This document shows positions 6,379-35,898 of a stretch of 64,000 nt of DNA, piece after piece. This DNA is from an uncultured Thermoplasmata archaeon (GTDB lineage Archaea; Thermoplasmatota; DTKX01; GCA-020343715): assembly GCA_965369625.1 (NCBI GenBank), contig CBDUQW010000006.1:4064-68063 (forward strand), read 5' to 3'. Made by a program: the position numbers and the translations under genes. How positions within the stretch are numbered: the stretch's first letter is position 1; every line of letters starts with the position of its first letter. The notes beneath the pieces are model-generated. The model was not told the DNA's origin and did no database searches. It was given only the letters and a program-made list of their open reading frames with translations.

Positions 6379-6400
6379 TGCGCCACCATCCGCCCCCAAG

Positions 6401-15402: not shown

Positions 15403-15508
15403 TGTGGGTCCCCGGGTCCATGCCAGGCCCGCACGAAAGGTATAATTCCCATTGTGTTCATCTGAATCGAGTGTCGGGGGATCGCCCTCCCTCGGTATAA
15501 TAAGGTAG

Positions 15509-16408
15509 ATGTCGCCTGGAGGAAGCCTGATGTCCATGGATAGGAGGGTATTGATCGTCCTTGGTGCCATCATCATTCTGGTCCCGGTAGCCAGTGGATG
15601 CTCCCCTTTCGAGCCCAAGGACGAGGTGGTGGACATGGACGGCATCATCGGTGACGACTGGCCTGTAATAATGGCGGAGGACGAGACGCCTCCTTTCGTC
15701 CCAACGATGCTGGACCTGGCCGTGGACCAGGGGACCTCCGTCACGCTGGACGGCTCCGGGGCCACGGACGATGAGGGCATCGAATCGTACGTTTGGACAT
15801 TCAAGTACGATTACGAAGAGGTAACATTGGAGGGGATGGTCCAGCATCACACCTTCGATATCCCTGACGTGTACGAGATACGGCTCGACGTGACGGACGA
15901 GGCTGGCAACAGCGCCTTCTCGACCTTCGACCTGACCGTCCGCGACACCGAGGTTCCCGTCGCCGTCCTCGACACCGGGAACACGGAGATCTGGGCGGGA
16001 GAGACCGCTGGCTGGGGAGCCCACCTCTCGACGGACAACGTCGGTGTCGTCAAGTACACCTGGACCTTCGAGTACGAAGGCAAGATGGTCAGCCTCGATG
16101 GTCCCGCCCCGACCTTCGTGTTCGAGAAGACGGGGGATTACGAGGTGACCCTCACCGTGGAGGACGCGGCGGGCAACACCGATTCGGAGACCTACGCCCT
16201 CACGGTCCAAGGTAATGCATGGCATTGGCTCCAGTTCGCCATCATCATAGGGGCCGTCGCCCTGGTCACGATATTCGTCATGCGCAGGCTCGGCTACGGG
16301 AAAGATGCCGGGGGAGAAGGGTCGGAAGAGGTAGTGGAGGGACCGGTAGGGGAGGAGCCGGAAGAGGAGGATGGGTCGGAAAAAGACGAGGAGGGGCCGG
16401 ACCCCTAG
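15509..16408 (+). CDS. PKD-domain membrane-anchored surface protein
   Basis: N-terminal signal/anchor followed by VASGCS. Two PKD-like repeats are present (TFKYDYEEV...; YTWTFEYEGKMV...). A C-terminal transmembrane helix is followed by an acidic tail (EEPEEEDGSEKDEE). Confidence 0.65.
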   Translation: MSPGGSLMSMDRRVLIVLGAIIILVPVASGCSPFEPKDEVVDMDGIIGDDWPVIMAEDETPPFVPTMLDLAVDQGTSVTLDGSGATDDEGIESYVWTFKYDYEEVTLEGMVQHHTFDIPDVYEIRLDVTDEAGNSAFSTFDLTVRDTEVPVAVLDTGNTEIWAGETAGWGAHLSTDNVGVVKYTWTFEYEGKMVSLDGPAPTFVFEKTGDYEVTLTVEDAAGNTDSETYALTVQGNAWHWLQFAIIIGAVALVTIFVMRRLGYGKDAGGEGSEEVVEGPVGEEPEEEDGSEKDEEGPDP

Positions 16409-16412
16409 GGGT

Positions 16413-16874
16413 TCACTCCAGCCGCTCGACGGACACGTCCTGCTCCCGGCTGCAGTAGACACACTTGAGGACCATGGGCTCCTTCCGGATGACCTTGAAC
16501 CGGGTGGAGACGGGCTCGTTGGAGTTGGTGATGCAGTTGGGGTTCTCGCAGCTGGCCAGGTCCACAACCTCCCGGGGAGGGCGCACGTGGTGCTTCTCGG
16601 CCACCTCGCCGTCCCGGATGATGTTGATGGTGGCGTGGGGCGACAGCAGCGCGATGCGGTTGAGCTCCCGCTTCTTGAGCTCCCGGTCCTCGATCTTGAC
16701 GATGTCCTTGTGCTCGTGGGCCCTGCTGGGCACGTGCATGATGACCGAGACGGTGGAGGTGGGCGGGTCCTCGTCCAGGCCCAGGATGTGGAGCACCTTC
16801 AGGGCCATGCCGGCCGTGATGTGGTCGATCACCGTCCCGTTCTGGATGGCACTGATCTTCAGCTCCTTCCTCAC
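16413..16874 (-). CDS. pyrI: Aspartate carbamoyltransferase regulatory subunit
   Basis: KISAIQNGTVIDHI is the PyrI signature. The C-terminal zinc domain shows CENPNC...CVYC. Confidence 0.9.
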   Translation of the reverse strand: MRKELKISAIQNGTVIDHITAGMALKVLHILGLDEDPPTSTVSVIMHVPSRAHEHKDIVKIEDRELKKRELNRIALLSPHATINIIRDGEVAEKHHVRPPREVVDLASCENPNCITNSNEPVSTRFKVIRKEPMVLKCVYCSREQDVSVERLE

Positions 16875-17812
16875 TTGATCACCCCCACGTCACCGCCCAG
16901 GACCAGGGTGAGGAGGGCCATGCGGACCGGTACCCCGTTGAAGGCCTGCTGGAAGTAGCGGGCGTACTTGGTGCCGTCCACCTCGGGGGATATCTCGTCC
17001 ACCCTCGGCAGGGGGTGCATGATTATCATGTTCTTCCTCGCGCCCTCCAGGGACGCCGTGTCGATGCGGAAGGCGCCCGCCACCTTGTTGTACTCCTCGA
17101 TGTCGGGGAAGCGCTCCTTCTGGATGCGGGTGACGTACAGCACGTCCACCTCCCCCATCACCTCGGAGATGTCCTCGTGGACCTCGAAGCGGGCGTTCCG
17201 CTTCTCCAGGTGGGAGACCACCTCGGGTGGCATCTGCAGGGCCTCGGGGGCCACGAAGTGGAGGTCCGCCCCGAACTTGGCCAGGGCGTAGGTGAGGGAG
17301 TGGACGGTGCGGCCGTACTTGAGGTCGCCCACCAGGGCGATGCTCTTCTTCCGGAGGTGGCCCAGCTCGTTGCGCATGGTGTAGAGGTCGAGGAGCGTCT
17401 GGGTGGGATGCTGTCCCGCCCCGTCCCCCGCGTTGATGACCGGGATGTCCGAGAACTCGGCCGCCATCCGGGCGGCGCCCTCGCGACCGTGGCGCAGCAC
17501 GATGACGTCGGCGTACGCGTCCACCATCTTGATGGTGTCGGCGAGGGTCTCGCCCTTGGCCGTGGATGTGGCCCGGACGTCGGAGAAGCCGATGACCTTC
17601 CCGCCGATGCGCTTCATGGAGGTCTCGAAGGAGAGCATGGTGCGCGTGGAGGGCTCGTAGAACATCATGGCCAGAATCTTCCCTGGCACCAGGTCGAGCA
17701 CCTCCTCGCCCCGGGCGGCGGGGACCATCCTCTCGGCCACGTCGAGTATGTAGTTTATCTCCTCCGTCGTGAAGTCCTTGATGCTTACGACGTCCCTCCC
17801 ACGGAAGTCCAC
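16871..17812 (-). CDS. pyrB: Aspartate carbamoyltransferase catalytic subunit
   Basis: STRTR and HPTQ motifs. Length is 313 aa if it starts at the in-frame GTG, which is preceded by GGAGGG. The rest of the 625-aa listed ORF (to 18748) has no ATCase similarity and runs antisense to trm5. Confidence 0.8.
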   Translation of the reverse strand: MDFRGRDVVSIKDFTTEEINYILDVAERMVPAARGEEVLDLVPGKILAMMFYEPSTRTMLSFETSMKRIGGKVIGFSDVRATSTAKGETLADTIKMVDAYADVIVLRHGREGAARMAAEFSDIPVINAGDGAGQHPTQTLLDLYTMRNELGHLRKKSIALVGDLKYGRTVHSLTYALAKFGADLHFVAPEALQMPPEVVSHLEKRNARFEVHEDISEVMGEVDVLYVTRIQKERFPDIEEYNKVAGAFRIDTASLEGARKNMIIMHPLPRVDEISPEVDGTKYARYFQQAFNGVPVRMALLTLVLGGDVGVIK

Positions 17813-17854
17813 GCCATCCCTCCGAAACCTCAATGGCCTAGAGTTACATAAAGG

Positions 17855-18907
17855 TTGACCATGCGTGTGGTCAGGGTGCGTCGCACCGACGTGGACCGGG
17901 CCCTGGGCCGGCTCCTCGACGCCGACCTGGTGGAGCGGGGCCTCAAGGTGGCCAGGAGGGGCGACCACGCCCTCATCCCCCTCAGGGAGGAACCTCCCGA
18001 GGGGCTCCTCGAAGGCATCGACCACGACATGGGGGAAGTGGCCACGGAGGGACTGATGCCGAGGGAGCAGCTGCGAACCCCCCTCGAGAGGGTGGTCCGG
18101 GCCGCCCGCGATGGGGGCTGGACCGAGGACCGGGTGGGAATGCTCCCCGACCGCTGGGAGCGCCTGGGCCGGTTGGTGCTGCTGAGGGTGCCTCCCGGCC
18201 TGGAGGACCGGGAGGTGGAGATGGCGTCCCTCTACGCCAGCGCCCTGGGAGTGGAGGCGGTGCTCGCCGAGGAGGGGCCGGTGACGGGGATCGAGCGCAG
18301 ACCCTCCGTGCGCCTGCTCTGGGGCGAGGGCACCGTCACCGTCCACCGGGAGCACGGCGTGGAGTACGAGTTCGACGCCGCCCGCCAGATGTTCTCCAAG
18401 GGCAACGTCCACGAGCGGCTTCGCATGGGCCAGGTCGTGGAGGAGGGGAACGTGGTGGTGGACATGTTCGCGGGCATCGGATACTTCACCCTGCCCATGG
18501 CCGTCCTCGGCTCCCCTGCGGTGGTGCACAGTGCCGAGATCGACCCCGGGGCCCACGGCTACCTGGAGGGCAACGTGGTCCGCAACGGGGTCGAGGTGAC
18601 CGTCGAGCCCCTGATGGGGAACTGCAGGGAGGTCGTCCCACGGGGGGTGGCCGACCGGGTGGTGATGGGCTACGTTGGCGGCACCGAGGGCTTCCTGGAC
18701 GTGGCCATGGAGGCCCTGGGACCGTCGGGCGGCGTTGTTCACCTCCACGAGAAGTACGGCATCGAGGAGGTACCTGACCGCCCCATGAGGGCCATCGGGG
18801 CGGCGGCCTCGGCATCCGGCAGGACGGCTCGGCTGCTGTCGTGGCGCGAGGTCAAGTCCTACGCGCCCGCCATCTTACACGCCGTGGTGGACGTCGACGT
18901 CAGGTGA
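17855..18907 (+). CDS. trm5: tRNA (guanine37-N1)-methyltransferase Trm5 (Trm5/Tyw2 family)
   Basis: VVDMFAGIGYFTLPMA is the SAM-binding motif of the Met-10+/Trm5 family. Length is 350 aa with a TTG start. Confidence 0.75.
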   Translation: MTMRVVRVRRTDVDRALGRLLDADLVERGLKVARRGDHALIPLREEPPEGLLEGIDHDMGEVATEGLMPREQLRTPLERVVRAARDGGWTEDRVGMLPDRWERLGRLVLLRVPPGLEDREVEMASLYASALGVEAVLAEEGPVTGIERRPSVRLLWGEGTVTVHREHGVEYEFDAARQMFSKGNVHERLRMGQVVEEGNVVVDMFAGIGYFTLPMAVLGSPAVVHSAEIDPGAHGYLEGNVVRNGVEVTVEPLMGNCREVVPRGVADRVVMGYVGGTEGFLDVAMEALGPSGGVVHLHEKYGIEEVPDRPMRAIGAAASASGRTARLLSWREVKSYAPAILHAVVDVDVR

Positions 18908-19102
18908 TGTCAGTGACATCAGGGACGTCCGGCGACCGCGGGGGCCTTGACCCATATGGCCATTGCCGGTGCTCTAGGCATTGAGCCCTTGAGGGGGATC
19001 TCGAGCCCCCGAGTTCAGTGTGACACCATGTCATGTTCCCTTGGAAGTCGGCCTAGAAGGGGCTGACGCTGAGGGGGATGGATGACGGGCGTAGTGGCCC
19101 GC

Positions 19103-22003
19103 CTAGTAGTCCAGCTCGTCGGAGTAATCGGGGAACCCGTTGGCAGGGACCTCTTGGGTCTCCTCCTCCGTGGGTGGCCTCGGCACCGAGGTCGGTGAGG
19201 TGGAGGCGGCCTGGTCGGCGCCGTAGAGGGCGACGGCCTCGTCCTCGGCCGGGGCTCCTGGCTTCCCCCTCATCACCATGATGGCGACGATGATGATGAC
19301 GAGGACGGCCACGATGACGCCCACCAGGACCATTACTCCCGAGGCTCCAGTGGACGTGGTGGTGGCCTCCTCCTCTATCTTGATCTCGAAGCTGTCGGTG
19401 GAGACGCCACCCCTGCTGTCGGTGACCTTCAGGGTCACGTTGTAGGTGCTTGGACTGGCGTAGATGTGGCTCCCCACCTTGTCGGTGGAGGTGGTGCCGT
19501 CACCGAATTCCCAGAGGTACGTCATGTCGTCATCGTTGGCGTCGGTCGCACCTGGGTCGAAGTAGACGGTCTCGTCCACCCTGTAGTTGCCACCCCCCAC
19601 CCTCTCACGGGGCGCTGGGTCGAGGGTCGGGATCCGGTTGGCGTCCACGTAGGCCTCCAGGGGGTACGAGTCCCCGGTGATCTCGAAGATCAGGTCGTGG
19701 GTCCCTGCCTCGGCCGTCCAGTAGAAGATCAGGGTCACCGGGGTGTCGACGTTGATGTTGATGGTGTCCTGGGAGACCTCGGTACCGTCGACGATGAAGG
19801 TGACGGTCACCCCACTGGCCCTGGCCTCGCCCCTGTTGTCGAGGACCACGGTGTACTTGATCGTGTCGGTCTCCACGGGGTACTCGTTGTTGGCCTCCGC
19901 GGTGATGAAGAACGGGTCGGGCTCGTAGGGCTTGACGGTGATGGTCACGTTGGTGCTGTGCTCGCCCTCGAAATCGTCCCTCACCGTCAGGGTGATGGCG
20001 TGCTCGCCCTCGGAGAGGGCCTTGTCGAAGGCCGCGGCGGTGCTCAGCAGACCGTCGATGTCGGAGACCCATTCGTACGTGAGGTCGTCGTCCTCCGGGT
20101 CCGTCGAGCTGACGGCGCTGAAGGGTATGTACTCGTCGGGGATGTACCTCTTCCCGTCGACGGGCAACGATATCTTGGCCAGGGGGTCCATGTTGATCAC
20201 GGTGGGTCCCTCCATGGGGCCCACGGCGGGATATCTCACCTGGTGCTTCCCATCGTTGAAGACGAAGTATATCCAGTGGGTGCCCATCGAAAGGGTGGTG
20301 GTGTACCTGAAGGTCTCGCCTCTGTAGTACTCGGACCCGTCGGGGTCCATGATGTTGGCCACCTCGTCGACGTAGATGTACGAGATGCTGGGATGGTCGT
20401 TCTCCTGGTCGGTGTAACTGATGGAGAAGGTGAACTCGTCCTTCCTGGTCCCCTCGTCGGGGCTGAACATGGGCATGGTCAGGTAGGGCTCGTTGTTCGG
20501 GGGGTCCACCTCGGGGCCGAGTATCCAGTTGGGGCTGTCGGTCTGGGGCGGCAGGCGCTTCTCGTCGATGCCGTCGGAGAAGAGGTAGTAGTACTTGTGG
20601 TTGAATCCCACCGCGAGCTTGGTGTCGTAGTAGTAGGTGACCCAGTCGTTCCACGGTCCCGTCGAGTCCGTCTGCATCTCGTGGGCGACGCCGTTGATGT
20701 TGATCATCGGCGAGACGGCCTCCTCGTTGTCGGCGTCCTTGTACATGATGTCGAAGTGGAAGATGGTGGACGTGTCGCCTCGCAGCGGGGCGTAGCTGGG
20801 CGACATGAGCTGCGGGTACTTGTTCCGGGGCTTGATGACCACCTGGGTGGCGTTCCATCCGTTGTCGCCCGTGGCGTCGGCGAAGCCGTCGGTGGCGAAG
20901 AACCGGTAGGTGTAGGTGCCCGGGTCGAGCCTTGTGGTCCAGGAGACCCACCTGCCGTCGGTCCAGGGGTCCGGCGAGTGCATGGGGGAGAGGGAGTGCT
21001 CGAGGACCGAGGAGGTGGCGTTCCTGAAGTACACCTTGGCCTCGGAGGGGCCCAGGTCCGGCCAGTCGTCGGGGTCCTGGTAGAACACCTTGAAGGTGAC
21101 GTCGTCGTCCTCGTTGGGGTTTTCTGGGGTCGCGACTTGTCCGGAGGCGATGGAGGGGGCCTGGTTGGGCACGGGGGTCATGTCGCTGTAGGTCGACTGG
21201 AGCACCTCGGCCGCGTACCTGTCGCTGCCTCCGTCTACCCGTGTGTGGGTCTGGACGAAGGCCACTACGGCCATGTCGTCCACCTTGGTGAAGGCGTCGG
21301 AGCTCAGGTCGAAGTTGTACTCGTACTCCTTGGTCTCTCCGTTGGCGATGGTCATCACCTCGCCGTTGGCGGAGGGCAGCATCTTGCGCACGGTGTAGTG
21401 GTGCATGGTCACACCGTTGCCACCATTCCAGGGCCCGTACTCCTTCCGCACGAGGACTGTGTGCAGGTACAGGTTCGATATGGAGGGCGTCTCCAGGGCG
21501 GTGACGTTCACCCAGACCTTGCCCGCCTTGTTGGGGGGTATGATGCCGTCCACGGTGATGTGCAGCTGGGACTGGATGGCCCGCCGGGTGTCGTACTGGG
21601 TCTCGAACCAATCCTCGGCGGCCTGTTCATCATAGAAACCACCCGCATGGATGATCTTGCCATCCACCCACATGTTGGGGGTCGAATGGGGTCCTGAGCT
21701 GATGTACCAGCCTTGGCGGGTGGCGGCGTCCTGGGTGGAGAGCTTGTCGGGTCGGGGGATCGGCCGGTGGTACACGAGGGCGATGGCCTCGTCGCGAGTG
21801 TGGGAATCCAAGAAGCCGTCAAGTCCCAGGTCCGCGTTCCTGCAGGGGGGACAATCCGCCCCCGTGAACATCTCCACCAGGACCGCCCTGGCCTCGGTGG
21901 CGTTCGGGGTGATGTTCCTGTCCGCGGCCCCAACGGGGACGAGGAGGGAGAAGCCAGATAGCAGGAACATGGTCAGTATCAAGGTGGTCATCAACCTTTT
22001 CAT
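19103..22003 (-). CDS. Giant surface protein: signal peptide, N-terminal thioredoxin-fold domain (CPPC), Ig-like/PKD repeats, C-terminal transmembrane anchor
   Basis: Start at MKRLMTT (ATG with GGAGGT 6 nt upstream). The domain VLVEMFTGADCPPCRNADLG follows directly after the signal peptide. The C-terminus is a hydrophobic helix (GVMVLVGVIVAVLVIIIVAIMV) plus an acidic tail. Confidence 0.75.
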   Translation of the reverse strand: MKRLMTTLILTMFLLSGFSLLVPVGAADRNITPNATEARAVLVEMFTGADCPPCRNADLGLDGFLDSHTRDEAIALVYHRPIPRPDKLSTQDAATRQGWYISSGPHSTPNMWVDGKIIHAGGFYDEQAAEDWFETQYDTRRAIQSQLHITVDGIIPPNKAGKVWVNVTALETPSISNLYLHTVLVRKEYGPWNGGNGVTMHHYTVRKMLPSANGEVMTIANGETKEYEYNFDLSSDAFTKVDDMAVVAFVQTHTRVDGGSDRYAAEVLQSTYSDMTPVPNQAPSIASGQVATPENPNEDDDVTFKVFYQDPDDWPDLGPSEAKVYFRNATSSVLEHSLSPMHSPDPWTDGRWVSWTTRLDPGTYTYRFFATDGFADATGDNGWNATQVVIKPRNKYPQLMSPSYAPLRGDTSTIFHFDIMYKDADNEEAVSPMININGVAHEMQTDSTGPWNDWVTYYYDTKLAVGFNHKYYYLFSDGIDEKRLPPQTDSPNWILGPEVDPPNNEPYLTMPMFSPDEGTRKDEFTFSISYTDQENDHPSISYIYVDEVANIMDPDGSEYYRGETFRYTTTLSMGTHWIYFVFNDGKHQVRYPAVGPMEGPTVINMDPLAKISLPVDGKRYIPDEYIPFSAVSSTDPEDDDLTYEWVSDIDGLLSTAAAFDKALSEGEHAITLTVRDDFEGEHSTNVTITVKPYEPDPFFITAEANNEYPVETDTIKYTVVLDNRGEARASGVTVTFIVDGTEVSQDTININVDTPVTLIFYWTAEAGTHDLIFEITGDSYPLEAYVDANRIPTLDPAPRERVGGGNYRVDETVYFDPGATDANDDDMTYLWEFGDGTTSTDKVGSHIYASPSTYNVTLKVTDSRGGVSTDSFEIKIEEEATTTSTGASGVMVLVGVIVAVLVIIIVAIMVMRGKPGAPAEDEAVALYGADQAASTSPTSVPRPPTEEETQEVPANGFPDYSDELDY

Positions 22004-22039
22004 AGCATTACCTCCAGTAAGCCTTCTCATTGCGATGGC

Positions 22040-22062
22040 GAAGACCTTTAAAAAATGTTTGG
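22040..22062 (-). promoter_or_regulatory. BRE/TATA promoter (sense strand CGAAACCAAACATTTTTTAAAGG) for the thioredoxin-fold surface protein gene
   Basis: A T-rich TATA preceded by an A-rich BRE lies 40-60 nt upstream of the ATG at 22003. Confidence 0.5.
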
Positions 22063-22363
22063 TTTCGAACACTGGCGCCTGAATGGGAGGTGGCTGGCAG
22101 GGACCGCTTCGGATTAGGTGTGGCTAAATCTCGAGACCCCCTTCCGTGCCGGTGAGGGGGCCTGAGATGACTGGCATCGGTGGTCACGGGAGGTGACGGG
22201 GGAGGCCTATCCCGAGGTTCCACCCCGTGGTGCTCCCCCCCAGGCTCGCGCAGATGTTGAAATGTCCAGTTCGAACTGCCTTCGGCTCGCGCTGTGGGCT
22301 AGGCGGGCCCCGTGGGGTCCGCGCCGTTGCACCCTGGGGGGGGTGCTAGGTCGTTCCAATTGT

Positions 22364-25075
22364 CTACCGTCGGCGGCGCACTACCACGACCAGCATGGCG
22401 ACCAGGAAGGCGCTGGCGGCGAGGAGCGCACCGAAGCCAGGGGACTCGTCGTCCGACTGGGGCTTGGTGACGGTCACCGTCAGTTCCTTGCTCACGACAC
22501 CACCGCGCTCGTCGGTGACGGTGACCTTCACGGTGTAGGTACCGGCCTCCGAGTACACGTGGGTGGGGGTCGCCCGGGTGTCGGTCATGCCGTCGCCGAA
22601 GTCCCAGAAGTAGGTGGCGTCATCGCCGTTGGCGTCGGTGACCTCGATGGTGAAGTAGACGTCCTTGCCAGGCTCGACCTCCAGTTCGGTGCCACCGCCC
22701 TCGAGGAAGGTCACCGTGACCTCGGGCAGCGTGTTGGCGGCCACGACCTCGGTGAGGTCCATGGACTCCTTCCCCACCTCGATGGTGATGGTGTGGGTGC
22801 CGACCACGGCCTCGGGCCAGGTGAAGACCTGGTCCGTGAGGGTGTTGCGCTGCACCGTCAGGGTGTCCGAGCTTATCTGGACGCCGTCCACCAGGAAGCG
22901 GATCTCCACGCCGGTGTCCTGGATCTCGCCGTCGTTGTTGAGGGTGACGGTGTACTTCACGCGGTCCATCTCCACGGGCTCGGCCGCGTCGGGGGTGATG
23001 CTCACGATGAAGGTGTGAGGCTCGTAGGGCTTGACCGTCAGGGAGACGGAGGTGGAGTGGACGCCGCCCCAGGAGTCGGTGACCTCAAGGGTGATGGTGT
23101 GCTCGCCCTCCGAGAGGGGCTTGTCGAAGGCCTCCAGGGTGCTGAGCTCGCCATCGACGTCCGAGGTCCACTTGTAGCTCATCTCGTCGCCCTCGGGGTC
23201 GTCGGAGCCGACGGCGCTGAAGGGGATGTAGTCGTCCGGAGTGAAGCGGACGCCGTCCGCGGGGGCAGCTATCTTCGCCACGGGGTCCATGTTGGTCACC
23301 ACGGGGCCGGTGATGTAGCCCGTCGCGGGGAACCTCACCATGGTCTTCCCGTCGTTGAACCCGAAGTGGATATCGTGGCCGCCCATGGTCATCCGGGTGG
23401 TGTAGCGGAAGGTGACGCCGACATCGTAGACCGACCCGTCGGGGTTCATGATGTACGGGACGTCGTCGATGTACACGTAGGATATGGTGGGATGGGCGTT
23501 CTCGGCATCGGTGTATTTGACGGTGAAGGTGAACTCGGTGTCCCGGGTGCCCTCCGCTGGCGTGAACTTCCCTTCGGTCAGGTATGGCTCGTTGTTGGGG
23601 GCCAAGACCTCCGGTCCTATGAAGAAGTTGGGGCTGGCGCCGGCGGACGGCATCCTCACCGAGTCCTCGCCGTCCGAGAACGTGAAGTAGTATCGGTAAA
23701 TGTCCTTGACCGACAGGGTGGTCTCGTAGTAGAAGGTCGCCCAGCTGTTCCATGGTCCAGTGGAATCGGTGTCCATGTCGTGGCCGACATTGTCGATGTA
23801 GATCTTGGCCTCCGCGGGCTCCTCGTTGTCCAGGTCCCGGTAGAGGATGTCGAAGCGGAACACGGTGTTGGTATCGCCGTCCTGGGGAGCGTAGCTGTGG
23901 GTGCTGAGCTGGGGCACCTTGTTCCGGGGGAGGATGGTGATCTGGGTGGCGTTCCAGGCTACGTCCCCGGTCGCGTCGTCCTCGCCGTCGTTGGCGGAGA
24001 AGCGGTAGGTGTACGTGCCCGGGGTCAGCGTGTTGGTGTACTGCATCCATTTGCCTACAGTGAAGGGGTCACCGCTGGAGATTTTGATCAGGTCGTGGCT
24101 GGTCGGATCGTTCGTGCCGTTCTTGAGGTAGACCTTGGCCTCGGAGGGGCCTTTGTCCTTCCTGTCGTCAGTGTCGCGGTACCATACCTTGAACTGGACC
24201 TCGTCATCCTCGGTGGCCTCGAGGGTCGATGCCTGTCCATCGCTGATGGTCGGAGGGACGTTGGGGAGCACGGGCACGCCGACGTAAGCTGCCTGGAGGA
24301 CCTCCAGGCCCGTTCCATGGGACTGCACGAAGGCGATGATGCCGATCTCCTCCCGGTCCTGGGCGTACGAGGACGTGTCGAAGGAGTATTCGACGTTCTT
24401 CGTCTGACCCTGGGTCAGGGAGACGGTGGTGCCCGACGCGCCCTCGGACTCAAGGAAGTCCCGGGCGGACCAGTTATGCCAATTCTCATTGTTACCACCG
24501 TTATAGGGACCGTAGTTCATTTCGAAGACCACGGTGTGGAGCTTCAGGTTAGAGAGGCTTGGGGTATCGACGGCGGTGATGTTGATCCAGGCATCGCCCT
24601 CTCCAGTCATGTCATCGTAGTCCCACTCCACCGTCAATCGGAGGGGAGAGGTAATGACCGACCGTTGGTTTATTAATCCCACGACCCGGTTGTAGTTCTG
24701 AACGGGGGTCCCAGCGGATCCATGAGCAGCAAGTTTTCCGTCGACCTTGATATGTGGGATACCGGACGGGTTGTAGAGGCTTAAACGAGCGTTCCCCTCG
24801 GTGTTCGAGAGTTGGTCACCCGAATGATAGGCGAGAATGACAACCTCGTCCCTCTCAAAGTTGTCCTCAACCATCTGCAGGCCCTTGTTCGCATTCACGC
24901 AGGGACCACACCAGGCTCCGGTCATTAGCTCCGCCAGCACCACGCGCTGGGTGCCCATGGGCGCGATGTCCATGGGCGCTGGCCCGGCTTCCTCGGCAGA
25001 AGCTGCCGGCACGAAGACGGCCATGGTCGATATCAAGAACAATACAACGATTCCAATGGTACGGATCTTTGCCAC
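22364..25075 (-). CDS. Giant surface protein, paralogue: thioredoxin-fold domain (WCGPC), Ig-like/PKD repeats, C-terminal transmembrane anchor
   Basis: GTG start giving MAKIRTIGIVVLFLISTMAVFVPAASA as signal peptide, with AAGGAGGA 7 nt upstream. LAELMTGAWCGPCVNANK is the canonical thioredoxin active site. Architecture is collinear with 19103..22003. Confidence 0.75.
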   Translation of the reverse strand: MAKIRTIGIVVLFLISTMAVFVPAASAEEAGPAPMDIAPMGTQRVVLAELMTGAWCGPCVNANKGLQMVEDNFERDEVVILAYHSGDQLSNTEGNARLSLYNPSGIPHIKVDGKLAAHGSAGTPVQNYNRVVGLINQRSVITSPLRLTVEWDYDDMTGEGDAWINITAVDTPSLSNLKLHTVVFEMNYGPYNGGNNENWHNWSARDFLESEGASGTTVSLTQGQTKNVEYSFDTSSYAQDREEIGIIAFVQSHGTGLEVLQAAYVGVPVLPNVPPTISDGQASTLEATEDDEVQFKVWYRDTDDRKDKGPSEAKVYLKNGTNDPTSHDLIKISSGDPFTVGKWMQYTNTLTPGTYTYRFSANDGEDDATGDVAWNATQITILPRNKVPQLSTHSYAPQDGDTNTVFRFDILYRDLDNEEPAEAKIYIDNVGHDMDTDSTGPWNSWATFYYETTLSVKDIYRYYFTFSDGEDSVRMPSAGASPNFFIGPEVLAPNNEPYLTEGKFTPAEGTRDTEFTFTVKYTDAENAHPTISYVYIDDVPYIMNPDGSVYDVGVTFRYTTRMTMGGHDIHFGFNDGKTMVRFPATGYITGPVVTNMDPVAKIAAPADGVRFTPDDYIPFSAVGSDDPEGDEMSYKWTSDVDGELSTLEAFDKPLSEGEHTITLEVTDSWGGVHSTSVSLTVKPYEPHTFIVSITPDAAEPVEMDRVKYTVTLNNDGEIQDTGVEIRFLVDGVQISSDTLTVQRNTLTDQVFTWPEAVVGTHTITIEVGKESMDLTEVVAANTLPEVTVTFLEGGGTELEVEPGKDVYFTIEVTDANGDDATYFWDFGDGMTDTRATPTHVYSEAGTYTVKVTVTDERGGVVSKELTVTVTKPQSDDESPGFGALLAASAFLVAMLVVVVRRRR

Positions 25076-25282
25076 CCTAACATCCTCCTTATACAGGATC
25101 TTATCCCAATCGACAAGATGGCAAGGGCGTTCTCCCCACTCTTCTACATGGGTCCCCCTGACCAATCTCAGTACGACTGGTGGAGATTCAAAGCGTGGGT
25201 CCAGTAGATAAAACCTTTGGTTTTTAGTTGGACTGGAGTGTTAGGGCCAGCTAATCCCATTAGAGGAGTTTTGGGAACATTC

Positions 25283-28778: not shown

Positions 28779-28994
28779 CTACGGGTTCTCGACCTCGCAC
28801 TCCTTGTCGCCCATCAGGCACGTGATGACGGTGAGGATGCCGAAGATGAGGAAGACGAAGCCGATCCCCAGGAAGGTGGGGAGGCCCTGATACGTGCTCC
28901 CATCCAATGCGATGACGTGCATGATCATGAATATGATGCCCACCACGAGCATGATGTATCCCGCCATCTTTCGAGTTATCTGCATCCGGATCAC
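28779..28994 (-). CDS. Small membrane protein
   Basis: 71 aa with two hydrophobic segments and a C-terminal CxxxxxxC. No further support. Confidence 0.3.
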   Translation of the reverse strand: MIRMQITRKMAGYIMLVVGIIFMIMHVIALDGSTYQGLPTFLGIGFVFLIFGILTVITCLMGDKECEVENP

Positions 28995-29375
28995 CGATGG
29001 GCCTCAATCTCCGAAGCCCGTATAAAAATGGCAGGGGCCCAAATATCACGGGAACGGAAAAACCCGCCCCCGCGCGGCCCGACCTCCACTTGAAGGGAAG
29101 GGGTATTCGACGCTCGCCGATGTACAAAAGCACTGGCCCTTCGAGGGGTAGATAAAGCTTCAGGCGAAATGTTCGTATATTTATATTTTTCTATCCGGGT
29201 TCTGCCTGTGAGAGCTACTCATTTCCGAGTAGGGTTTCTTGTCCCCGGAGTGTCTCCCTTATGTTAATCTCAGGTGCCCTGTGACGAACGGAATCGCAAT
29301 TCTACACCTGATTCTGCATTGTATATTTAACGAGTTATGGGTCCCTAGGGATGGGGTTCCACATGAAACGCCCAA

Positions 29376-29393
29376 CGTAAAGGATATATAGTG
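29376..29393 (+). promoter_or_regulatory. BRE/TATA promoter (CGTAAAGGATATATAGTG)
   Basis: A canonical archaeal TATA box in an AT-rich block. It points into the roughly 1-kb protein-free structured region. Confidence 0.45.
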
Positions 29394-29414
29394 AATAGGG
29401 CGTATGGAAGGTTT

Positions 29415-30422
29415 GCAGTCGCGGGGGGCGTAAAACCCCTTGATACTGCCGATACACGGATCGGACAAAATGTGATATTCCGCATCGAGCATTTCGGTGC
29501 TCACCGCGGAACGCCGCGTTCCGGACCAACGCTCGCTCGACTCGTGAACGAGGGTCGCTCGGCTTCGGCCTTGCTTCCTCTCGACCGCGGATCGGGTTGT
29601 TGGACCGGGTGACACGCACTAGCACGCGAGGATGGTCATCGACCCTCTGGGGATTGTGTTCGCACAGACCCCTGGGTTGCTGCCTTCCCTTCCCGCGCAC
29701 GGCCCTCGGTGGCCGCCCGATCCCCACTTCGGTGGGGAATGGAAGACCACCACTGGACCGAGCACCGCCGTCACGCCCTCGGGCGTGTCGTCGTAGGGCG
29801 CGTCGACGGGGTCCCTCCGTCGGACCTTCCCTTCGGGGAAGCGATGTCGGTTCCTCCCCGCCGGGAGCTTGTTCGTGCCGATCCCACACGCGCCCAGGCA
29901 TGGCGACCTGAGTCATCGACACGGTTTCGGCCGTTGACTTGGCTCGGAACGTTGGCATGCAACACCTGGTTCCGCTTCGGCGGTCCCTCCAGTTGCATTC
30001 CGACCATTCGGTCGTGGCACCCGGGTCGACCTCGGTCGACCTTTCCGTCACGGACGGGACGCCCAGTTGACGCCATACGGGCCGGCCTCGGTCGGTCCAG
30101 TGACGCCAACCCAAACGTCCGGTCGTCCCCTGACCCCCTCGGCTTCGGCCGTCGAGGTCTTCGGTGATCGATGGCTGTCGCCCGGACGCGCCGTGTCCGC
30201 ATGGGGCACCGACGCGACCTCGGTCGCACTGGAGTTCCATGCGGCGCCACGGAAAAATCGGCAGTCAGAGAAGGTCCGGACCTTCTCGATTGGGGGGCTT
30301 TCCCCCGAAGCGACCCCGGATCGCACCGGGGGAAAAGCCCTCCGCGCCTGCCCTTTTGGCCCGCTGTACACTGGCACCAGGCCTGTTCTCCTTATCGACA
30401 AGGTAGCCAGATATACTTTTTT
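29415..30422 (+). ncRNA. Candidate large structured noncoding RNA (class unknown)
   Basis: About 1 kb with no protein-like ORF on either strand. It has five perfect GC stems capped by UUCG tetraloops (for example CCCCAC-TTCG-GTGGGG at about 29722-29737; CCGC-TTCG-GCGG at about 29972-29983; CGGC-TTCG-GCCG at about 30141-30152), plus further palindromes. It starts about 25 nt downstream of the TATA box and ends at a T6 run (30417-30422). Confidence 0.3.
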
Positions 30423-30553
30423 CAGACCAGAAATGGTAATCGAGATTGTTACCGGATTTGGTAACATACACCGTACCGGTGTCCCCTGGGCGAGGTTATT
30501 TGTGGGGTGATGCCCATGGCATCGGTCGCGTGGTGGAGATTTCCTTGGGTTGG

Positions 30554-32230
30554 GTGAAATGCATGCTCCTGGCATCCGCCCTGGCAATACTGGCAATGGC
30601 CCTTCTCCCAGCGGGGAGCGTGGCGGCCGAGGACATCGAACCCGACTTCTACGGCCTGGTCGACCAGCCCTTGGCCCTGAACGTGGACGTGGAACCCGGT
30701 GGGCCAGTGGACCTCTACCACTGGGATCTCGACGGTGATGGCGTCTTCGATCGGTCGTCCGTTCAGGCGAACGTGACCCACACGTACAACGCCTCCGGTA
30801 CCTATCAGGCGGTGCTGCGGGCGAACCTCACCAACGGCTCGATCAGGATGTGGTTGTTCCTGGTGGAGATCGCACCACGGAACCAGATCCCCGTGGTGGT
30901 CATCATCGGTCACGAGGATGATTACGTGGAGACGGACAGGCTCACACCAGTGGAGCTGCTGGGAACGGCCACCGATGATGGCCAGATCGTTCTGTACGAA
31001 TGGGACTTCGAGGGGGACGGTATCTACGATTGGTCCTCTCCCGTGACCAAGGGCACCAACCACACCTTCACCCAGCTGGGCACCCACGTGGCAGTGCTAC
31101 GGGCCACCGATGACCAAGGGGCCAACGGCATGGCCATCCTCATCGTCCATGTGATCAACCTGGCTCCCGTGATGCAGAACCATCACAGGATCATCACCAA
31201 CAGACCAGATGTGGAGCTCAAAGCTTACGCGGAAGACCCCGACGGGGAGATCGTCACCTACACCTGGACCTTCGACGATGGCTCGGAGCCCGTGAACACC
31301 ACCGTCCCGTGGGTGACCCACATCTTCCCAGTGCATCCCGGGTACTACTTGGTCCAGATACAGGTCTTGGACAACGACGGTGGCTCATCGACTACATCGT
31401 TTTACGTGGAGATGAAGGGAGATATCCATTTCAGGGTCCACAAGGTCGATGCAGGGCCCGACATCATCACCGTGGTGGGCAAGGCCGTCCAGTTCAACGT
31501 TAACGTGTCGGACGGCACCGAGGCGATCGAGCACTACTACTGGGACCTGACGGGCGATGGTGTCACGGACACCGACGCGAGGACCATCACCTACGTTTAC
31601 GACCATGCGTGGACCATCGAGGTCACCGTGTCCGTGGTGGACGAGTGGGGATATGCGGTGAACGATTCGCTGGTGGTCACCGTGTATCCCGAGGAGAACG
31701 AGCCGCCCGTGCCCGTTCCCTCGATGGAGCAGTGGGTGAGGCCCGGACGGAACCTGAGGTTCTCAGAACAGTCGTACGACCCCGACGGCTCCATCGTGCT
31801 GTACCAGTGGGACTTCGACGGGAACGGCACCTTCGACCACGCCGACACCGAGGACGGCAACGTCACCCACGTGTACGTCGACGAGGGCGTCTACGTGGCG
31901 GTGCTCCAGGTGACCGACAACCGGGGCGAGGTGGCCTCGGTCCCGGTGACCATCAAGGTGAGCAACGACGCCCCCGACGAGGACGATGTGGACGACAGCA
32001 TGGGCGCCGCGGTGTGCTGCATATCCATGGTGGTGGTGATGGTCGTCATCGCGTACTGGACCATGCGGAAGTCCGCGGCCACACCGCGGAAGGACGGGGG
32101 CCCGGTCCAACAGGAGGTCGAGGCCTCCGAGGGGCCCACGGAAGAGGAGGAGGAAGCAGAGCAGGAGGCAGAACAGGAGGCAGAACAGGAGGCAGAACAG
32201 GAGGCGGGACCCGAGGGCGGTCCTGATTAG
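30554..32230 (+). CDS. PKD-repeat surface protein (signal peptide, at least 4 PKD-like domains, C-terminal transmembrane helix and acidic EAEQ-repeat tail)
   Basis: GTG start gives MKCMLLASALAILAMALLPAGSVAA; the ATG at 30563 is an alternative. Repeated units of the YxWDxDGDG type are present. The tail reads EEEEEAEQEAEQEAEQEAEQEAGPEGGPD. Confidence 0.7.
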   Translation: MKCMLLASALAILAMALLPAGSVAAEDIEPDFYGLVDQPLALNVDVEPGGPVDLYHWDLDGDGVFDRSSVQANVTHTYNASGTYQAVLRANLTNGSIRMWLFLVEIAPRNQIPVVVIIGHEDDYVETDRLTPVELLGTATDDGQIVLYEWDFEGDGIYDWSSPVTKGTNHTFTQLGTHVAVLRATDDQGANGMAILIVHVINLAPVMQNHHRIITNRPDVELKAYAEDPDGEIVTYTWTFDDGSEPVNTTVPWVTHIFPVHPGYYLVQIQVLDNDGGSSTTSFYVEMKGDIHFRVHKVDAGPDIITVVGKAVQFNVNVSDGTEAIEHYYWDLTGDGVTDTDARTITYVYDHAWTIEVTVSVVDEWGYAVNDSLVVTVYPEENEPPVPVPSMEQWVRPGRNLRFSEQSYDPDGSIVLYQWDFDGNGTFDHADTEDGNVTHVYVDEGVYVAVLQVTDNRGEVASVPVTIKVSNDAPDEDDVDDSMGAAVCCISMVVVMVVIAYWTMRKSAATPRKDGGPVQQEVEASEGPTEEEEEAEQEAEQEAEQEAEQEAGPEGGPD

Positions 32231-32268: not shown

Positions 32269-35200
32269 GTGGTCGAGGGCCGCGAAGGTCCATTGGGGAC
32301 CTTCCGGGATGGTGATGCACGCCTGAGAACCCCGTACTCCGCCAGCTACCGCTGGCGCCGCGATCGTGCCGGGAGGGTCAGCTTCTCCTCCGCGGCCGTC
32401 CTCCTGCTGGTCCTCTTCACCTACTCGATGGCCCTCACGGGGCCGAACGGGCCCTGGGCCGGGGACGGAGCGGACGACCTCTCCCTTGCGGACCTGGAGG
32501 CAATGCTGCGTGACGGCATCCAGCAGGCACTGGATGCGGCCCTCGAGAGGGCGGTCCATGCTGCGGCGCTGGCGGATGGGATCGACCTTGCCAGCGCCCT
32601 TGACGCCGCCTTCTCGTCCTGTCTTCCACGATACCTGCCAGAGGAGGCGCGGGGATGGAAGGTGGACCTCGAGCGCGCCCGCGCCGGCCTGAGGTGCTCT
32701 CCCGTCCCTCCCCCGGGACCGGGTCTGCACCTCGCCGCCACCGGACCCGTCGCCCTGGTCGAGGTGAGCCTGACGGCACCCTACTTCGACACGGCCAGAC
32801 CCCTCCGCCTGGCACTGGTGGTGTCGGGACCCCTCTCATCCCCCAATGCCCTCGTGGCCAGGACGTCCTCCACCATGGCAGCCCTGTCGGACGACGGGGG
32901 TCCCCTCGCCTACGCCCTTCGCAACATCCTGTGGGAGACGGTCCAGTCGGAGGTCCTCAAGGGTCAGCGGGGGGCCAGTGGGTCGATCGGACCTGAGGCG
33001 GTCGAGACGGTCTTCAAGCGGGTCATCGGGGATGTCGCCCGAGGCGGTCCACCGGCGGCCCCCGGTGTGCCCAGTATCGACCTGGAGGCTCTGGTCCGGC
33101 AGGCCGTCGAGGGGATGCTCCAGCGGAACCTGGGCTGGTTGGACGAGTACATCCTCGGGGGAGAGGTGATGGAGTGGCTGGAGGAGCTGGGGGGGCTGGG
33201 GGGGCTGGGGGGGCTGGGTGAACTGGGGTCGATCCGAAGGGACCTCCGGACGCTGGCGGCCCGGAGGGTGGCCGAGGTCACCATCGCCGTCCTCGAGGAT
33301 GCGGGTCTCGGGGTCTGGGCCCCCGATCGTGAGGATGACCTCACGGGGACGGTGGAGGCGGGAGTGGATGCCCTCAGGGGGCTCTCCGACCGCCTCCAGG
33401 AGGCCTCCGCCTTCGAGGGAGCGGCGGCCAGGGCCGGGAGGGAGTTCGCACAGGAGGCCCTCACAGCACTCCTGGGGGCCATTCCCGGGTCCCTGGAGGA
33501 TGGGATGGTCGAGGCCCTCGAGGGTCGTGCGGCCTGGGCATTCTCCCAGGTCGCCCTCGTCGTGGCCAGGCTTGGGCTCGACTGTGCCAGGGACGCCCTC
33601 CTGGCCATAGGGACCTGCGGTCGCGAGGTCGATGCCGGAGAGGTGGGGCGGGTGGACGCCTCATCATCCGGTCCCCGCGTGGAGCTGGGGCCTTTGAACG
33701 TCTCCACCTCCTGGTCGGGAGTGGTGGCCTGCGAGCCTGGCAACCTGATCGGTCCGGCGGTGAGGGCGCTCTGGGAAGGGGACGGGCTGCCAGAGGTCCC
33801 CATGGGCTCGATGCCCTACCGGGCGACGTGCCTGGTGGCCGTCGAGGGGACGGCCCGGCTCGTGGCGAGGTTGGGGCCATCCGCACACGGGGACGGGGGA
33901 GGGGAGGTGGTCTGGCACGTCCCGGTGGACCTGTCCGTGGAGGTGCCCCTGGTCAGCGGCTGGCCGTTGGAGGGCGTGGAGTACGTGCCGTCCGCGACGC
34001 TGGCAGGGGACCTGACGACGGTGGTGGAGGCGGCCTACGGCAGCGTCGGGTCGTCCTTCGGGTGGCTGGTGCAGAGGTTCTCGGACGCGGACGAGTGGGT
34101 CAGGACGCAGCTTCTCGACCTGGCCGGCGACATGAGGGAGAGCCTGATGACCGAGTCGGCCTACACCCTCTCCCAGGCCCTGTGGAGCATCGGGGACGAC
34201 CTGGTGGACCGGAAGGTCAACGACGCCATCAACCGCTCTTGGGACCTGCTGATGGACCTGTTCGGGGACGACCTTCGCGAGGCCCTCACCTGGGAGTTCG
34301 AGGTCATGGGGATCGACATGCGGCTGTCGGTCGACCCTGCCAAGCAGCAGCTGGAGGTGCTCGCAAGGAGGGGGGAGGTGTCCCTGTTGCTGTGCGTCCG
34401 ACGCCTGTGCGACCCGCATCCGCCCTTCGCCGCGAGGCCCATCTCGGGCTACCACTGGGGGGTCTTCGGTGAGGCCAGGCTCGATACGGAGGACGGGGGT
34501 GCGGTGCTGTACCTCGACCCCCTGACGCTGGAGCATCCCTCGGTGATGACGGTGGAGGCCCGCTGGGGGGACGTGACGAACGGCTCGGGTCGGCTCCTCC
34601 GGGTGGAGGCGCTGGAGGCCCGGAAGCAGCGGGGGACCACGGGGGTGTCCCTCTCCCAGCTGGTCGGAGGGTCCGCGTTGCTCTCCATGGTCGGGGGCCT
34701 CGCCGTGGACGCCGGCGTGGCGGTCCACGGGGACCTGGGCGAGGAGGGGGCGATGGAGGAGATGCTGTCCCGTGCGGTGAAGGACGCGTGGATGGCCACC
34801 GTGCGCGGGTGGAAGGTGGGCGACCTCCTGGGTGGGACGGGCAGGGGGCCCGACGCCGGGGCATTCCTCGAGACCCTGCTCCGTGAGCTGTACTTCGCGC
34901 TGGTCGAACGCGGGTCGGGCCTGGTGGAGGAGATCGAGGCCTTCGTCGAGGTGGACCCTCCCGACCCCGTGTGGCCCGCGGTGAGGGTGTCCCTGGTGGT
35001 GTTGCGGCCCCTGGAGGTGCTGCTCCCCCTCGTCGAGTGGGTGAGGGGGGCGCTGCCCGGGCTCGTGGACGGGGCGTGGTCCGGGAGCGGCGGGGGGGGG
35101 TCACACGGTGGCGGGACGGGGCTGGCGGCCTGGGCGGCCGAGCATGTGGTGGTGCGGACCGAACTCTCGTGGACGGTGGACGTCCCGGAACGCCTTCGTT

Positions 35201-35898
35201 CCCTGGCCGGCGAGGCGGTCCCCGACCAGGTGGGCCTGGTGCTGCGGTTCTCGGCGAACCTGGCCTCCCTCGCCGCACTGGCCGGCAGGGGTGTCGGTCT
35301 GTGGGAGGCCTCCGCGGAGGTGCTGCTGAGGGGCCTGCCTGGTGTCGTGCTGGCCGTTGTGCCCGGCATGGGGGAGCCCCATTGGAGGTGGGTGGAGGTG
35401 ACCCTGTTGCGGGTGAGGTTGCGGGAGACGGCGTCGCCCATGGTGCTGCTGTCCCAGGTGCTGTACGATGCCCGGGGGAAGGACGCGGACCTGGAGTTCG
35501 TGGAGCTGGTCAACCGGGGCGACCGGGTGCTGGACCTGGAGGGATGGTGCATCGAGGACGATGGCGGGCGGCTCGTGGTCAAGGGCCACCACCCGCTGCT
35601 GCCGGGGGACCACCTGCTGGTGGCCCGCAACGGGTCGGCCGTTCGGGAGACGTGGGGCCAGCGGGCCGACGTGGACCGCATGCGGCTCCGCCTGTCCAAC
35701 GAGGGCGACCACGTCAGGCTGCTGGGGCCGGACGGTTCCCTGCTCGACATGGTGGCGTGGGAGGGACACGTGCCGGGCTGGGAGGGGCTGGATGCCGGGG
35801 AGGGGTTCGCCCTCATACGGGCCGAGGGCTCGCTGGAGCGGTGTGAGCCCTCAGCGTGGACGGTGGGTGTGCCGGCACCACGGGGTTCGGTGTGGTGA
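32269..35898 (+). CDS. Large Ala/Leu/Gly-rich membrane-anchored protein with a C-terminal lamin-tail-domain (LTD)-like module
   Basis: N-terminal hydrophobic anchor (AAVLLLVLFTYSMALTG). The C-terminus LLSQVLYDARGKDADLEFVELVNRGDRVLDLEGWCIEDDGG...HLLVARN matches the LTD pattern (EFVEL-N-G...L-GW). The body is low-complexity and Ala-rich. Confidence 0.6.
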   Translation: MVEGREGPLGTFRDGDARLRTPYSASYRWRRDRAGRVSFSSAAVLLLVLFTYSMALTGPNGPWAGDGADDLSLADLEAMLRDGIQQALDAALERAVHAAALADGIDLASALDAAFSSCLPRYLPEEARGWKVDLERARAGLRCSPVPPPGPGLHLAATGPVALVEVSLTAPYFDTARPLRLALVVSGPLSSPNALVARTSSTMAALSDDGGPLAYALRNILWETVQSEVLKGQRGASGSIGPEAVETVFKRVIGDVARGGPPAAPGVPSIDLEALVRQAVEGMLQRNLGWLDEYILGGEVMEWLEELGGLGGLGGLGELGSIRRDLRTLAARRVAEVTIAVLEDAGLGVWAPDREDDLTGTVEAGVDALRGLSDRLQEASAFEGAAARAGREFAQEALTALLGAIPGSLEDGMVEALEGRAAWAFSQVALVVARLGLDCARDALLAIGTCGREVDAGEVGRVDASSSGPRVELGPLNVSTSWSGVVACEPGNLIGPAVRALWEGDGLPEVPMGSMPYRATCLVAVEGTARLVARLGPSAHGDGGGEVVWHVPVDLSVEVPLVSGWPLEGVEYVPSATLAGDLTTVVEAAYGSVGSSFGWLVQRFSDADEWVRTQLLDLAGDMRESLMTESAYTLSQALWSIGDDLVDRKVNDAINRSWDLLMDLFGDDLREALTWEFEVMGIDMRLSVDPAKQQLEVLARRGEVSLLLCVRRLCDPHPPFAARPISGYHWGVFGEARLDTEDGGAVLYLDPLTLEHPSVMTVEARWGDVTNGSGRLLRVEALEARKQRGTTGVSLSQLVGGSALLSMVGGLAVDAGVAVHGDLGEEGAMEEMLSRAVKDAWMATVRGWKVGDLLGGTGRGPDAGAFLETLLRELYFALVERGSGLVEEIEAFVEVDPPDPVWPAVRVSLVVLRPLEVLLPLVEWVRGALPGLVDGAWSGSGGGGSHGGGTGLAAWAAEHVVVRTELSWTVDVPERLRSLAGEAVPDQVGLVLRFSANLASLAALAGRGVGLWEASAEVLLRGLPGVVLAVVPGMGEPHWRWVEVTLLRVRLRETASPMVLLSQVLYDARGKDADLEFVELVNRGDRVLDLEGWCIEDDGGRLVVKGHHPLLPGDHLLVARNGSAVRETWGQRADVDRMRLRLSNEGDHVRLLGPDGSLLDMVAWEGHVPGWEGLDAGEGFALIRAEGSLERCEPSAWTVGVPAPRGSVW

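Follow-up and report, generated by a model that had tools for sequence, protein, structure and literature searches.

Few non-coding RNAs are both large and intricately folded: if ribosomal RNA (rRNA), ribonuclease P (RNase P) RNA, transfer-messenger RNA and the self-splicing introns are set aside, only a handful of families are recognized, i.e., OLE, GOLLD, ROOL, HEARO and raiA, all of which are, to our knowledge, bacterial or phage-borne. Each known ornate large RNA has opened up new biochemistry; OLE, for example, works as a ribonucleoprotein (RNP) that is held at the membrane by OapA, a protein encoded next to OLE itself. GOLLD and ROOL are ornate RNAs of bacteria and phages which self-assemble into cages (PMC12286853). 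These bacterial ornate RNAs, OLE, GOLLD and ROOL, are by kind the nearest analogues (PMC9723947, PMC12286853) of the element reported here, which is located in a 64-kb stretch of DNA (64,000 nucleotides; hereafter the window, to which all coordinates refer unless a locus is named) from an uncultured Thermoplasmata archaeon, and which is the representative of a new RNA family, large, structured and non-coding, that occurs in a clade of uncultured Thermoplasmata. It is apparently the first RNA of such a type to be described in archaea, and a literature search on large archaeal or Thermoplasmata RNAs found no described equivalent. For these Thermoplasmata, the only large RNAs of comparable type known to us are the universal ones.

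A conserved, structured RNA without coding signal

A preliminary description of the window had proposed a novel large structured non-coding RNA between positions 29150 and 30530. This proposal is now backed by homologues in ten other lineages, by covariation and by the outcome of Rfam searches, and its extent required adjustment: the core of the RNA was trimmed to 29415-30351 on the plus strand, the preceding segment (29150-29414) being AT-rich, apparently regulatory DNA that lies outside the RNA. The core comprises ~937-938 nt and about 40 helices, and its predicted fold is multi-domain and closed on itself. That the region is a genuine, selected, structured RNA read from the plus strand is, in our assessment, practically certain.

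The flanking DUF106/EMC3 protein, of which no exact copy is on record, assigns the organism to the uncultured Thermoplasmata/Thermoplasmatota archaea. Contigs encoding relatives of this protein were found to carry the same non-coding region, with 69-77% DNA identity over ~1.1-1.5 kb. DNA pattern scans returned one true match out of six among genome contigs, i.e., the GTDB representative L014, and one out of seven among metagenome contigs (L019), the remaining matches being due to chance, in the metagenomes to GC-rich bacterial genes; viral contigs yielded no match, and neither did a blastn search of phage and plasmid records. Orthologues of the downstream PKD protein (see below) added four more lineages (L026, L027, L028 and L029). 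The lineage set numbers eleven, all of them uncultured Thermoplasmata, and consists of the window, L004, L005, L009, L011, L014, L019 and the four just named. The RNA is single-copy, with one covariance-model hit per locus at a fixed site. Since its DNA identity over its entire length is 69-77% between lineages whose adjoining PKD proteins share only 47-69%, the comparison indicates that the RNA is under selection.

Compensatory base changes were evident in both the smaller and the larger alignment. For seven sequences, RNAalifold returned 313 pairs, 71 of which exhibit compensatory double changes; in a count against controls, the same number of sequences gave 334 pairs (92.7% paired) with 81 double-changed pairs, compared to 13-19 when the partners were slid (0/500 shuffles). 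With all eleven sequences, 117 of 329 pairs (89.4% paired) were double-changed, as opposed to 30-46 with slid partners (again 0/500 shuffles), so that the covariation suggested as a check is present and very strong. The fold is also more stable than composition-matched sequence, with a minimum free energy z-score for the 938-nt core of -8.1 on the plus strand and -6.9 on the minus strand, compared to -0.9 for a coding control of equal length, in agreement with the stable secondary structure proposed earlier. The consensus pairs contain 309 G.U cells against 114 A.C cells, indicating that the RNA is read from the plus strand. Furthermore, a covariance model (R1) of the 3' domain scored 100-155 bits in the sense and 25-37 bits in the antisense orientation, with exactly one hit per locus.

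The abundance of UUCG-capped GC stems, at least five of which had been noted in the preliminary description, is a feature of the RNA and not of the window at large. Counting perfect stems of at least 3 bp on both strands, six UUCG and three CUCG hairpins were detected within 29415-30352, as against a single UUCG hairpin in the rest of the window, and there is no UUCG hairpin on the minus strand anywhere in the window. UUCG and CUCG both belong to the stable YNMG class of tetraloops. In the consensus fold, eleven of the sixteen hairpin loops have a UUCG or CUCG sequence in nearly all members, the two being freely interchangeable, and none of the sixteen is a GNRA loop.

The protein-free interval is bounded by a small gene ending at 28994 and by the start of the PKD gene near 30557-30563; within it, positions 29400-30400 form an island with a GC content of 0.60-0.72, flanked by AT-richer DNA (0.47-0.55). 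The earlier statement that no credible open reading frame (ORF) exists between 28995 and 30553 holds. A Pfam search of the ORFs inside the RNA region returned no match; three-nucleotide periodicity of substitutions is absent from this region (p=0.84), as opposed to the adjoining PKD coding sequence (p=8.5e-7); and indels across the RNA homologues are nearly all of 1-2 nt, and hence frame-breaking. The region thus exhibits neither the codon periodicity, nor the indels in multiples of three, nor the protein homology of a protein-coding gene or pseudogene. A disrupted protein gene and a lack of conservation or covariation, which had both been named beforehand as ways in which the RNA proposal could fail, were looked for, and neither is the case.

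Of note, public gene calls place Pfam-less 'hypothetical proteins' of 182-294 aa across the RNA, on either strand (L005:8763-9311, L009:6826-7668, L011:7486-8370 and L029:5165-6049). These calls are very probably annotation artefacts, and public metagenome annotations accordingly contain spurious 'hypothetical proteins' of 180-300 aa that were set over this RNA by gene callers. In a six-frame pseudo-protein search for such spurious ORFs over homologous RNAs, conducted against a set of 5.8 billion proteins, nothing scored, candidates being swamped by low-complexity words.

The window was also compared with Rfam 15, whose 4227 models include those for RNase P RNA, signal recognition particle (SRP) RNA, rRNA, group I and II introns, OLE, GOLLD, ROOL, HEARO and raiA. 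At the gathering threshold, the only match in the whole window was a tRNA-Ile; at E values of up to 10 with permissive filters, the RNA region produced three spurious hits, which scored 14-18 bits where the cut-offs are 45-79; and the homologues L014 and L019 showed no match within the RNA. This check, which had been proposed at the outset, therefore yielded no credible match to any of the 4227 families in the window or in two homologues. With no Rfam match, no Pfam ORF inside it and one fixed copy per locus, the element does not resemble a group II intron or a retroelement RNA.

Architecture and predicted transcription unit

The closed core, all elements of which lie on the plus strand, starts at G29415 with the terminal helix P1 (29415-29422/30344-30351), which joins the 5' and 3' ends; inspection of P1 by eye, with no tool run, revealed nothing convincing in terms of a K-turn or a bulge-helix-bulge motif. 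P1 is followed by a 5' hairpin comprising an invariant G6 run (GGGGGGCG-loop-CCCYCU; 29423-29441; helix 2), whose covariation support is weak because only one side varies. The long-range helix P3 (helix 3; 29445-29453/30257-30265), with ACUGCCGAU as its 5' strand, is 92-94% paired with two covarying pairs, and encloses two large domains. Domain I (29458-29884; helices 4-22) is closed by a helix formed by 29458-29464/29878-29884, bears several UUCG/CUCG-capped arms and contains the invariant stretches GAUAAAACGCGAUA, UGACACG..CUAGCACGCGAGGAUGG and GGGAUUGUG. Domain II (29890-30189; helices 23-35), closed by 29890-29904/30174-30189, carries six YUCG-capped arms and includes repeated CGACCUCGGUCG-type hairpins (repeat family D1). 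Comparison across the loci indicates that Domain II is the variable domain and is partly dispensable. Core length is 926-944 nt in nine lineages, and the remaining two, L026 (5049-5791; 743 nt) and L029 (5129-5860; 732 nt), represent natural deletion variants from which ~170-200 nt of Domain II are gone, with the 5', central and 3' conserved cores retained.

Downstream of Domain II, a long arm with a nearly invariant CUCG cap (GCGACCUCGGUCGC; 30191-30252; helices 36-37) exhibits nine covarying pairs. The most conserved part of the molecule is the 3' domain (30257-30343; helices 38-39), which consists of the 3' strand of P3 and two hairpins. The first of these, GAGAAGGUCC/GGACCUUCUC (30268-30287), is one of two additional palindromes listed in the preliminary description and is indeed a real, covarying helix; the other, a local GGGG-CUUU-CCCC hairpin, was not borne out, as those bases pair at longer range inside the second hairpin of the 3' domain. 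This second hairpin, of 52 nt (30292-30343), has an invariant or nearly invariant loop (CCCCGGA in the window). A single CCGGGGG strand is complementary to both its stem strand CCCCCG and its loop CCCCGG, and the 5' G6 run (29423-29428) provides an additional potential partner. These alternative pairings could represent a conformational switch or a pseudoknot, a choice that covariation cannot decide because all of the bases concerned are invariant. Outside the closed core, a 3' tail hairpin (30358-30383; helix 40/42) shows covariation in six of ten pairs among the eleven sequences. A CG(N)CGACCUCGGUCG-type hairpin module is present in three copies (30022-30038, 30078-30094 and 30210-30226), which may constitute reiterated binding sites.

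Both motifs of an archaeal transcription unit, i.e., a TFB recognition element (BRE)/TATA box near the 5' end and an oligo-T tract at the 3' end, are present and kept at fixed spacing, as sequence motifs only. The BRE/TATA element (CGTAAAGG ATATATAG; 29376-29391, plus strand), already noted in the preliminary description, is kept in all eleven loci and constitutes the predicted promoter of the RNA gene. Its distance to the first base of P1 is constant across loci (22-23 nt) and the sequence of the spacer varies; as a fixed distance with a variable spacer is the signature of a promoter and its start site, transcription is predicted to start at about G29415. Fourteen nucleotides upstream of the TATA box lies a conserved box, TCCACATGAAAC (29358-29369, plus strand), which resembles a mini origin recognition box (ORB), is matched exactly in the window, keeps its position and orientation in related loci, and is a probable regulator-binding site of the RNA promoter. 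At the other end, the previously reported T6 tract (30417-30422, plus strand) is the probable transcription stop of the RNA, in line with oligo-T tracts being the standard stop signal of archaeal RNA polymerase. The corresponding stretch, ATATACTTTTTTCAGACCAGA, is invariant or nearly so in ten of the eleven loci, L029 possessing a T4 instead.

The interval between T6 and the PKD gene is tentatively read as the PKD gene's own promoter and operator. A TATA-like GATATAC (30410-30416), which directly precedes T6 and resembles the TATA box of the RNA itself, may form part of the PKD promoter, and is followed by a GGTAAT-N7-GTTACC-N6-GGTAAC element (30435-30465, plus strand), located outside the RNA core as linked context, with near-invariant half-sites and variable spacers. 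This element could be a perfect 6-N6-6 palindromic operator, part of the PKD 5' untranslated region (UTR), or two mutually exclusive RNA hairpins. With this TATA-like box and the operator-like palindrome placed between the RNA and the start codon of PKD, a separate PKD promoter is suggested. A second T-rich run (30495-30503) is found ~55 nt before the PKD start codon, and together with the 30435-30465 element it might make up a small attenuator or else a distinct RNA of ~65 nt.

Genomic setting and competing explanations

In all eleven loci, the gene immediately downstream of the RNA is an orthologous PKD gene with the same orientation. In the window, this constant downstream neighbour encodes a PKD-repeat surface protein (30557-32230, plus strand; Pfam PKD/PKD_4) and is followed by an LTD protein gene (32269-35898; Pfam LTD). 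The order downstream of the RNA comprises the PKD protein (~535-610 aa), the LTD protein (~1100-1200 aa) and a convergently encoded protein of at least ~1090 aa with Glucodextran_B and beta-helix domains. The other flank of the RNA varies: in some lineages DUF106 adjoins it, and elsewhere pilin-like, AbiE, dehydrogenase or acetyltransferase genes intervene. For example, L004 carries an AbiEii/AbiEi toxin-antitoxin pair (6059-7610) and other genes between the RNA module and the DUF106-cmk-truB block, which shows that the RNA stays linked to the PKD gene and not to the translation-related genes. A twelfth lineage, L030, possesses the PKD orthologue and is missing the RNA, and neither nhmmer nor the covariance model detected a hidden copy in L030 or in L012. 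The RNA slot of L030 (4156-5889, plus strand) encodes a 577-aa protein with a sub-threshold match to the tubulin/FtsZ GTPase domain (E=1.7e-6; 28.9 bits against a cut-off of 33).

Diverging from the RNA in the window is a gene for a conserved, Pfam-less small membrane protein of 68-71 aa (28782-28985, minus strand), for which two membrane helices are predicted and whose C terminus bears a C..MG..EC motif. This gene adjoins the RNA in six of the eleven lineages (the window, L004, L009, L014, L027 and L028), was not found in the flanks examined of L005, L011, L026 and L029, and was not seen in loci without the RNA; in L004, L009, L027 and L028 a Pilin_N (archaeal pilin-like) gene comes next. An obligatory pairing of the RNA with this protein was considered, and was rejected given its presence in only six lineages. 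Further downstream, ~32 kb of the window (30557-62502) consist almost entirely of genes for predicted surface proteins of giant size (594 to 1615 aa); the only other genes in this run encode an asparaginase (50950-51891) and a SOR/SNZ-family protein (56710-57618). The domain scan of this run covered all but the ORFs at 43704-50869, 51979-56553 and 57655-62502, and the scanned proteins carry PKD, LTD, Glucodextran_B and Big_13 domains; further PKD/CARDB proteins are encoded at 11584-25165. Apart from the giant surface-protein run, the rest of the window is ordinary chromosome.

On balance, the element probably has a transcription unit of its own and acts in trans, as a very stable RNA of the scaffold type. 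Archaeal RNA polymerase would start at about G29415, 24 nt downstream of the BRE/TATA element, and stop at T6, generating a primary transcript of ~1,000 nt, in which residues 29415-30351 would fold into a closed structure, with the terminal helix and a second long-range helix around two multi-arm domains, and with ~11 arms capped by hyper-stable UUCG/CUCG tetraloops. The invariant junctions, the internal loops and the 3' domain would represent the functional core, with part of Domain II being dispensable, and the RNA would serve as a stable scaffold that binds a protein or self-assembles, as the bacterial ornate large RNAs do, rather than as an mRNA leader. Its transcription may also dampen the PKD promoter, because it crosses the TATA-like box of the PKD gene. 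Several observations weigh against such an independent RNA: its start, its end and its independence from the PKD mRNA are all deduced from sequence; same-strand adjacency to the PKD-LTD pair in all eleven loci is also expected of a cis-acting leader; the second T-rich run lies in the presumed PKD 5' UTR, so that T-runs at this locus need not all terminate transcription; and the small membrane protein, a candidate partner, is an inconstant neighbour. Moreover, the sampled lineages are closely related, and conserved synteny is therefore weak evidence either way. The main rival is accordingly a giant cis-acting 5' leader, co-transcribed with the PKD-LTD operon, which controls read-through at T6 (attenuation), mRNA stability or translation, or is later excised. 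Besides the constant adjacency to the PKD gene, which contrasts with the varying neighbour on the other side, such a leader would fit the short distance of about 135-145 nt from T6 to the start codon, and an interval that offers mutually exclusive hairpins (GGUAAU/GUUACC versus GUUACC/GGUAAC) as well as the second T-run. An alternative terminator/antiterminator pairing with the RNA core was, however, not found. The first base of the closed core coincides with the predicted start, its last base lies 65 nt ahead of T6, an invariant and strong archaeal stop signal, and the downstream gene appears to have a control region of its own, given the TATA-like box and the operator-like palindrome between the RNA and the coding sequence. 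The two also come apart: L029 keeps the RNA and is missing the control block downstream of the T-run, from CAGACCAGA to GGTAAC, and L030 keeps the PKD gene without the RNA. Many archaeal mRNAs have short leaders or none, and we know of no precedent in archaea for a leader of 40 helices and such a size. For these reasons an RNA acting independently in trans is favoured, and a leader is considered unlikely.

The remaining explanations are less probable still. Three direct-repeat ORB-like boxes (29083-29105, 29158-29169 and 29358-29369) occur upstream of the RNA at the same positions as in L004, L005, L009, L011, L014, L019, L027 and L028, and bracket 270 bp of conserved AT-rich DNA that includes TATATTTATATTTTTC. 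A second, divergent small RNA within 29055-29150, or a structured element within 29196-29352, was considered for this DNA; RNAalifold produced no consensus structure on either strand, and regulatory DNA is preferred. The boxes are similar to the ORB consensus of archaea, CTTCCAGTGGAAACGAAAGGGGT, and to the Methanomassiliicoccales ORB GTTCCAGTGGAAATGG-AGGGGTA (PMC4153887, PMC1868953), and the region might function as an orphan origin or in regulation of the Orc1/Cdc6 type. The RNA might then be part of an Orc1/Cdc6-binding module, the locus being a replication origin or an Orc1-regulated region that controls the RNA or at which the RNA acts. Such a module would account for the first box, with the consensus TCTCCACATGAAACGGAGGGGT, which occurs once per RNA locus at about -330, for CTTCAGNNGAAA at 29158-29169 and TCCACATGAAAC closer to the promoter, and for the AT-rich stretch between the boxes (GC 0.47-0.49). 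Yet all boxes are direct, in contrast to the inverted ORBs next to orc1/cdc6 that are usual for archaeal origins, the ORB-like box of the window itself is degenerate (two mismatches), no orc1/cdc6 gene is present in the window or within about 10 kb in related loci, no GC-skew switch occurs at 29 kb, and a tie between the boxes and the function of the RNA is purely conjectural, so that this explanation appears improbable. Even less probable is that the models failed to recognize a known large class (RNase P RNA, SRP RNA, an rRNA fragment, group I or II introns, or OLE, GOLLD, ROOL or HEARO), of which the element would be a very divergent member. Large models can become less sensitive, and the lineage is a divergent one without cultured members; against this stand the absence of any match in three independent homologues, even with permissive filters and E values of up to 10, a length of ~940 nt that far exceeds that of RNase P or SRP RNA, the lack of a reverse transcriptase or maturase ORF and of an interrupted host gene, and the fixed, single-copy position. 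Finally, a decayed protein-coding gene, chance GC-rich hairpins, a cluster of DNA palindromes or the remnant of a mobile element might be suspected, given that gene callers set ORFs of 182-294 aa across the region in some contigs. The missing codon periodicity, the frame-breaking indels and the empty Pfam search, combined with compensatory changes, strand-specific G.U pairs and the absence of copies elsewhere, including viral contigs, phages and plasmids, effectively refute this last option.

Comparison with described RNAs

A more far-reaching proposal, which we put forward only tentatively and regard as doubtful, is that this is the first archaeal 'ornate' RNA in a functional sense, i.e., a 1-kb scaffold (self-assembling or protein-organizing) or a ribozyme, wired to an ORB-like control region and to a surface-protein operon. 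If true, an ornate archaeal RNA machine would have a role, e.g., in cell-envelope biogenesis or replication-coupled regulation, without known RNA precedent. With ~40 helices, over 100 pairs that covary among just eleven sequences, a well-defined predicted promoter and a compact core, the RNA is directly usable for chemical probing, cryo-electron microscopy and pull-downs.

Among smaller or better-known RNAs, riboswitch and attenuator leaders share with the element a position upstream of a gene on the same strand and a T-run before the coding sequence, from which it differs in being an order of magnitude larger and in having a closed fold that ends well before the T-run. Archaeal RNase P RNA and SRP RNA are likewise stable RNAs with their own promoters and a terminal helix that joins the 5' and 3' ends; they are, however, universal, whereas the taxonomic range of the present RNA is narrow, and it is two to three times larger than either and matched neither family in the permissive Rfam search.

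Closer parallels are offered by the bacterial ornate RNAs. OLE (ornate, large, extremophilic; Bacillota) is similarly large, highly conserved and multi-helical, with invariant junction nucleotides and a biochemical role that is obscure in both cases; furthermore, the gene for OapA adjoins OLE, just as the gene for a two-helix membrane protein diverges from the archaeal RNA in some lineages. The two share no sequence or structure match, however: OLE is a bacterial RNA of ~600 nt that sits inside an operon, and the present RNA is an archaeal one of ~940-1000 nt with its own predicted promoter, whose membrane-protein neighbour is optional. The strict co-occurrence with an adjacent membrane-protein gene that characterizes an OLE-type membrane RNP is thus not observed. 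GOLLD and ROOL, in turn, differ from the archaeal RNA in that no model match links them to it, and in that it is not tied to prophages or tRNA clusters, being instead a single chromosomal copy with fixed synteny and hairpin loops dominated by UUCG and CUCG. What they have in common, as judged for the archaeal RNA from its sequence alone, is their size class (about 600-800 nt), a many-armed ornate fold, dispensable peripheral arms and the lack of a linked coding function.

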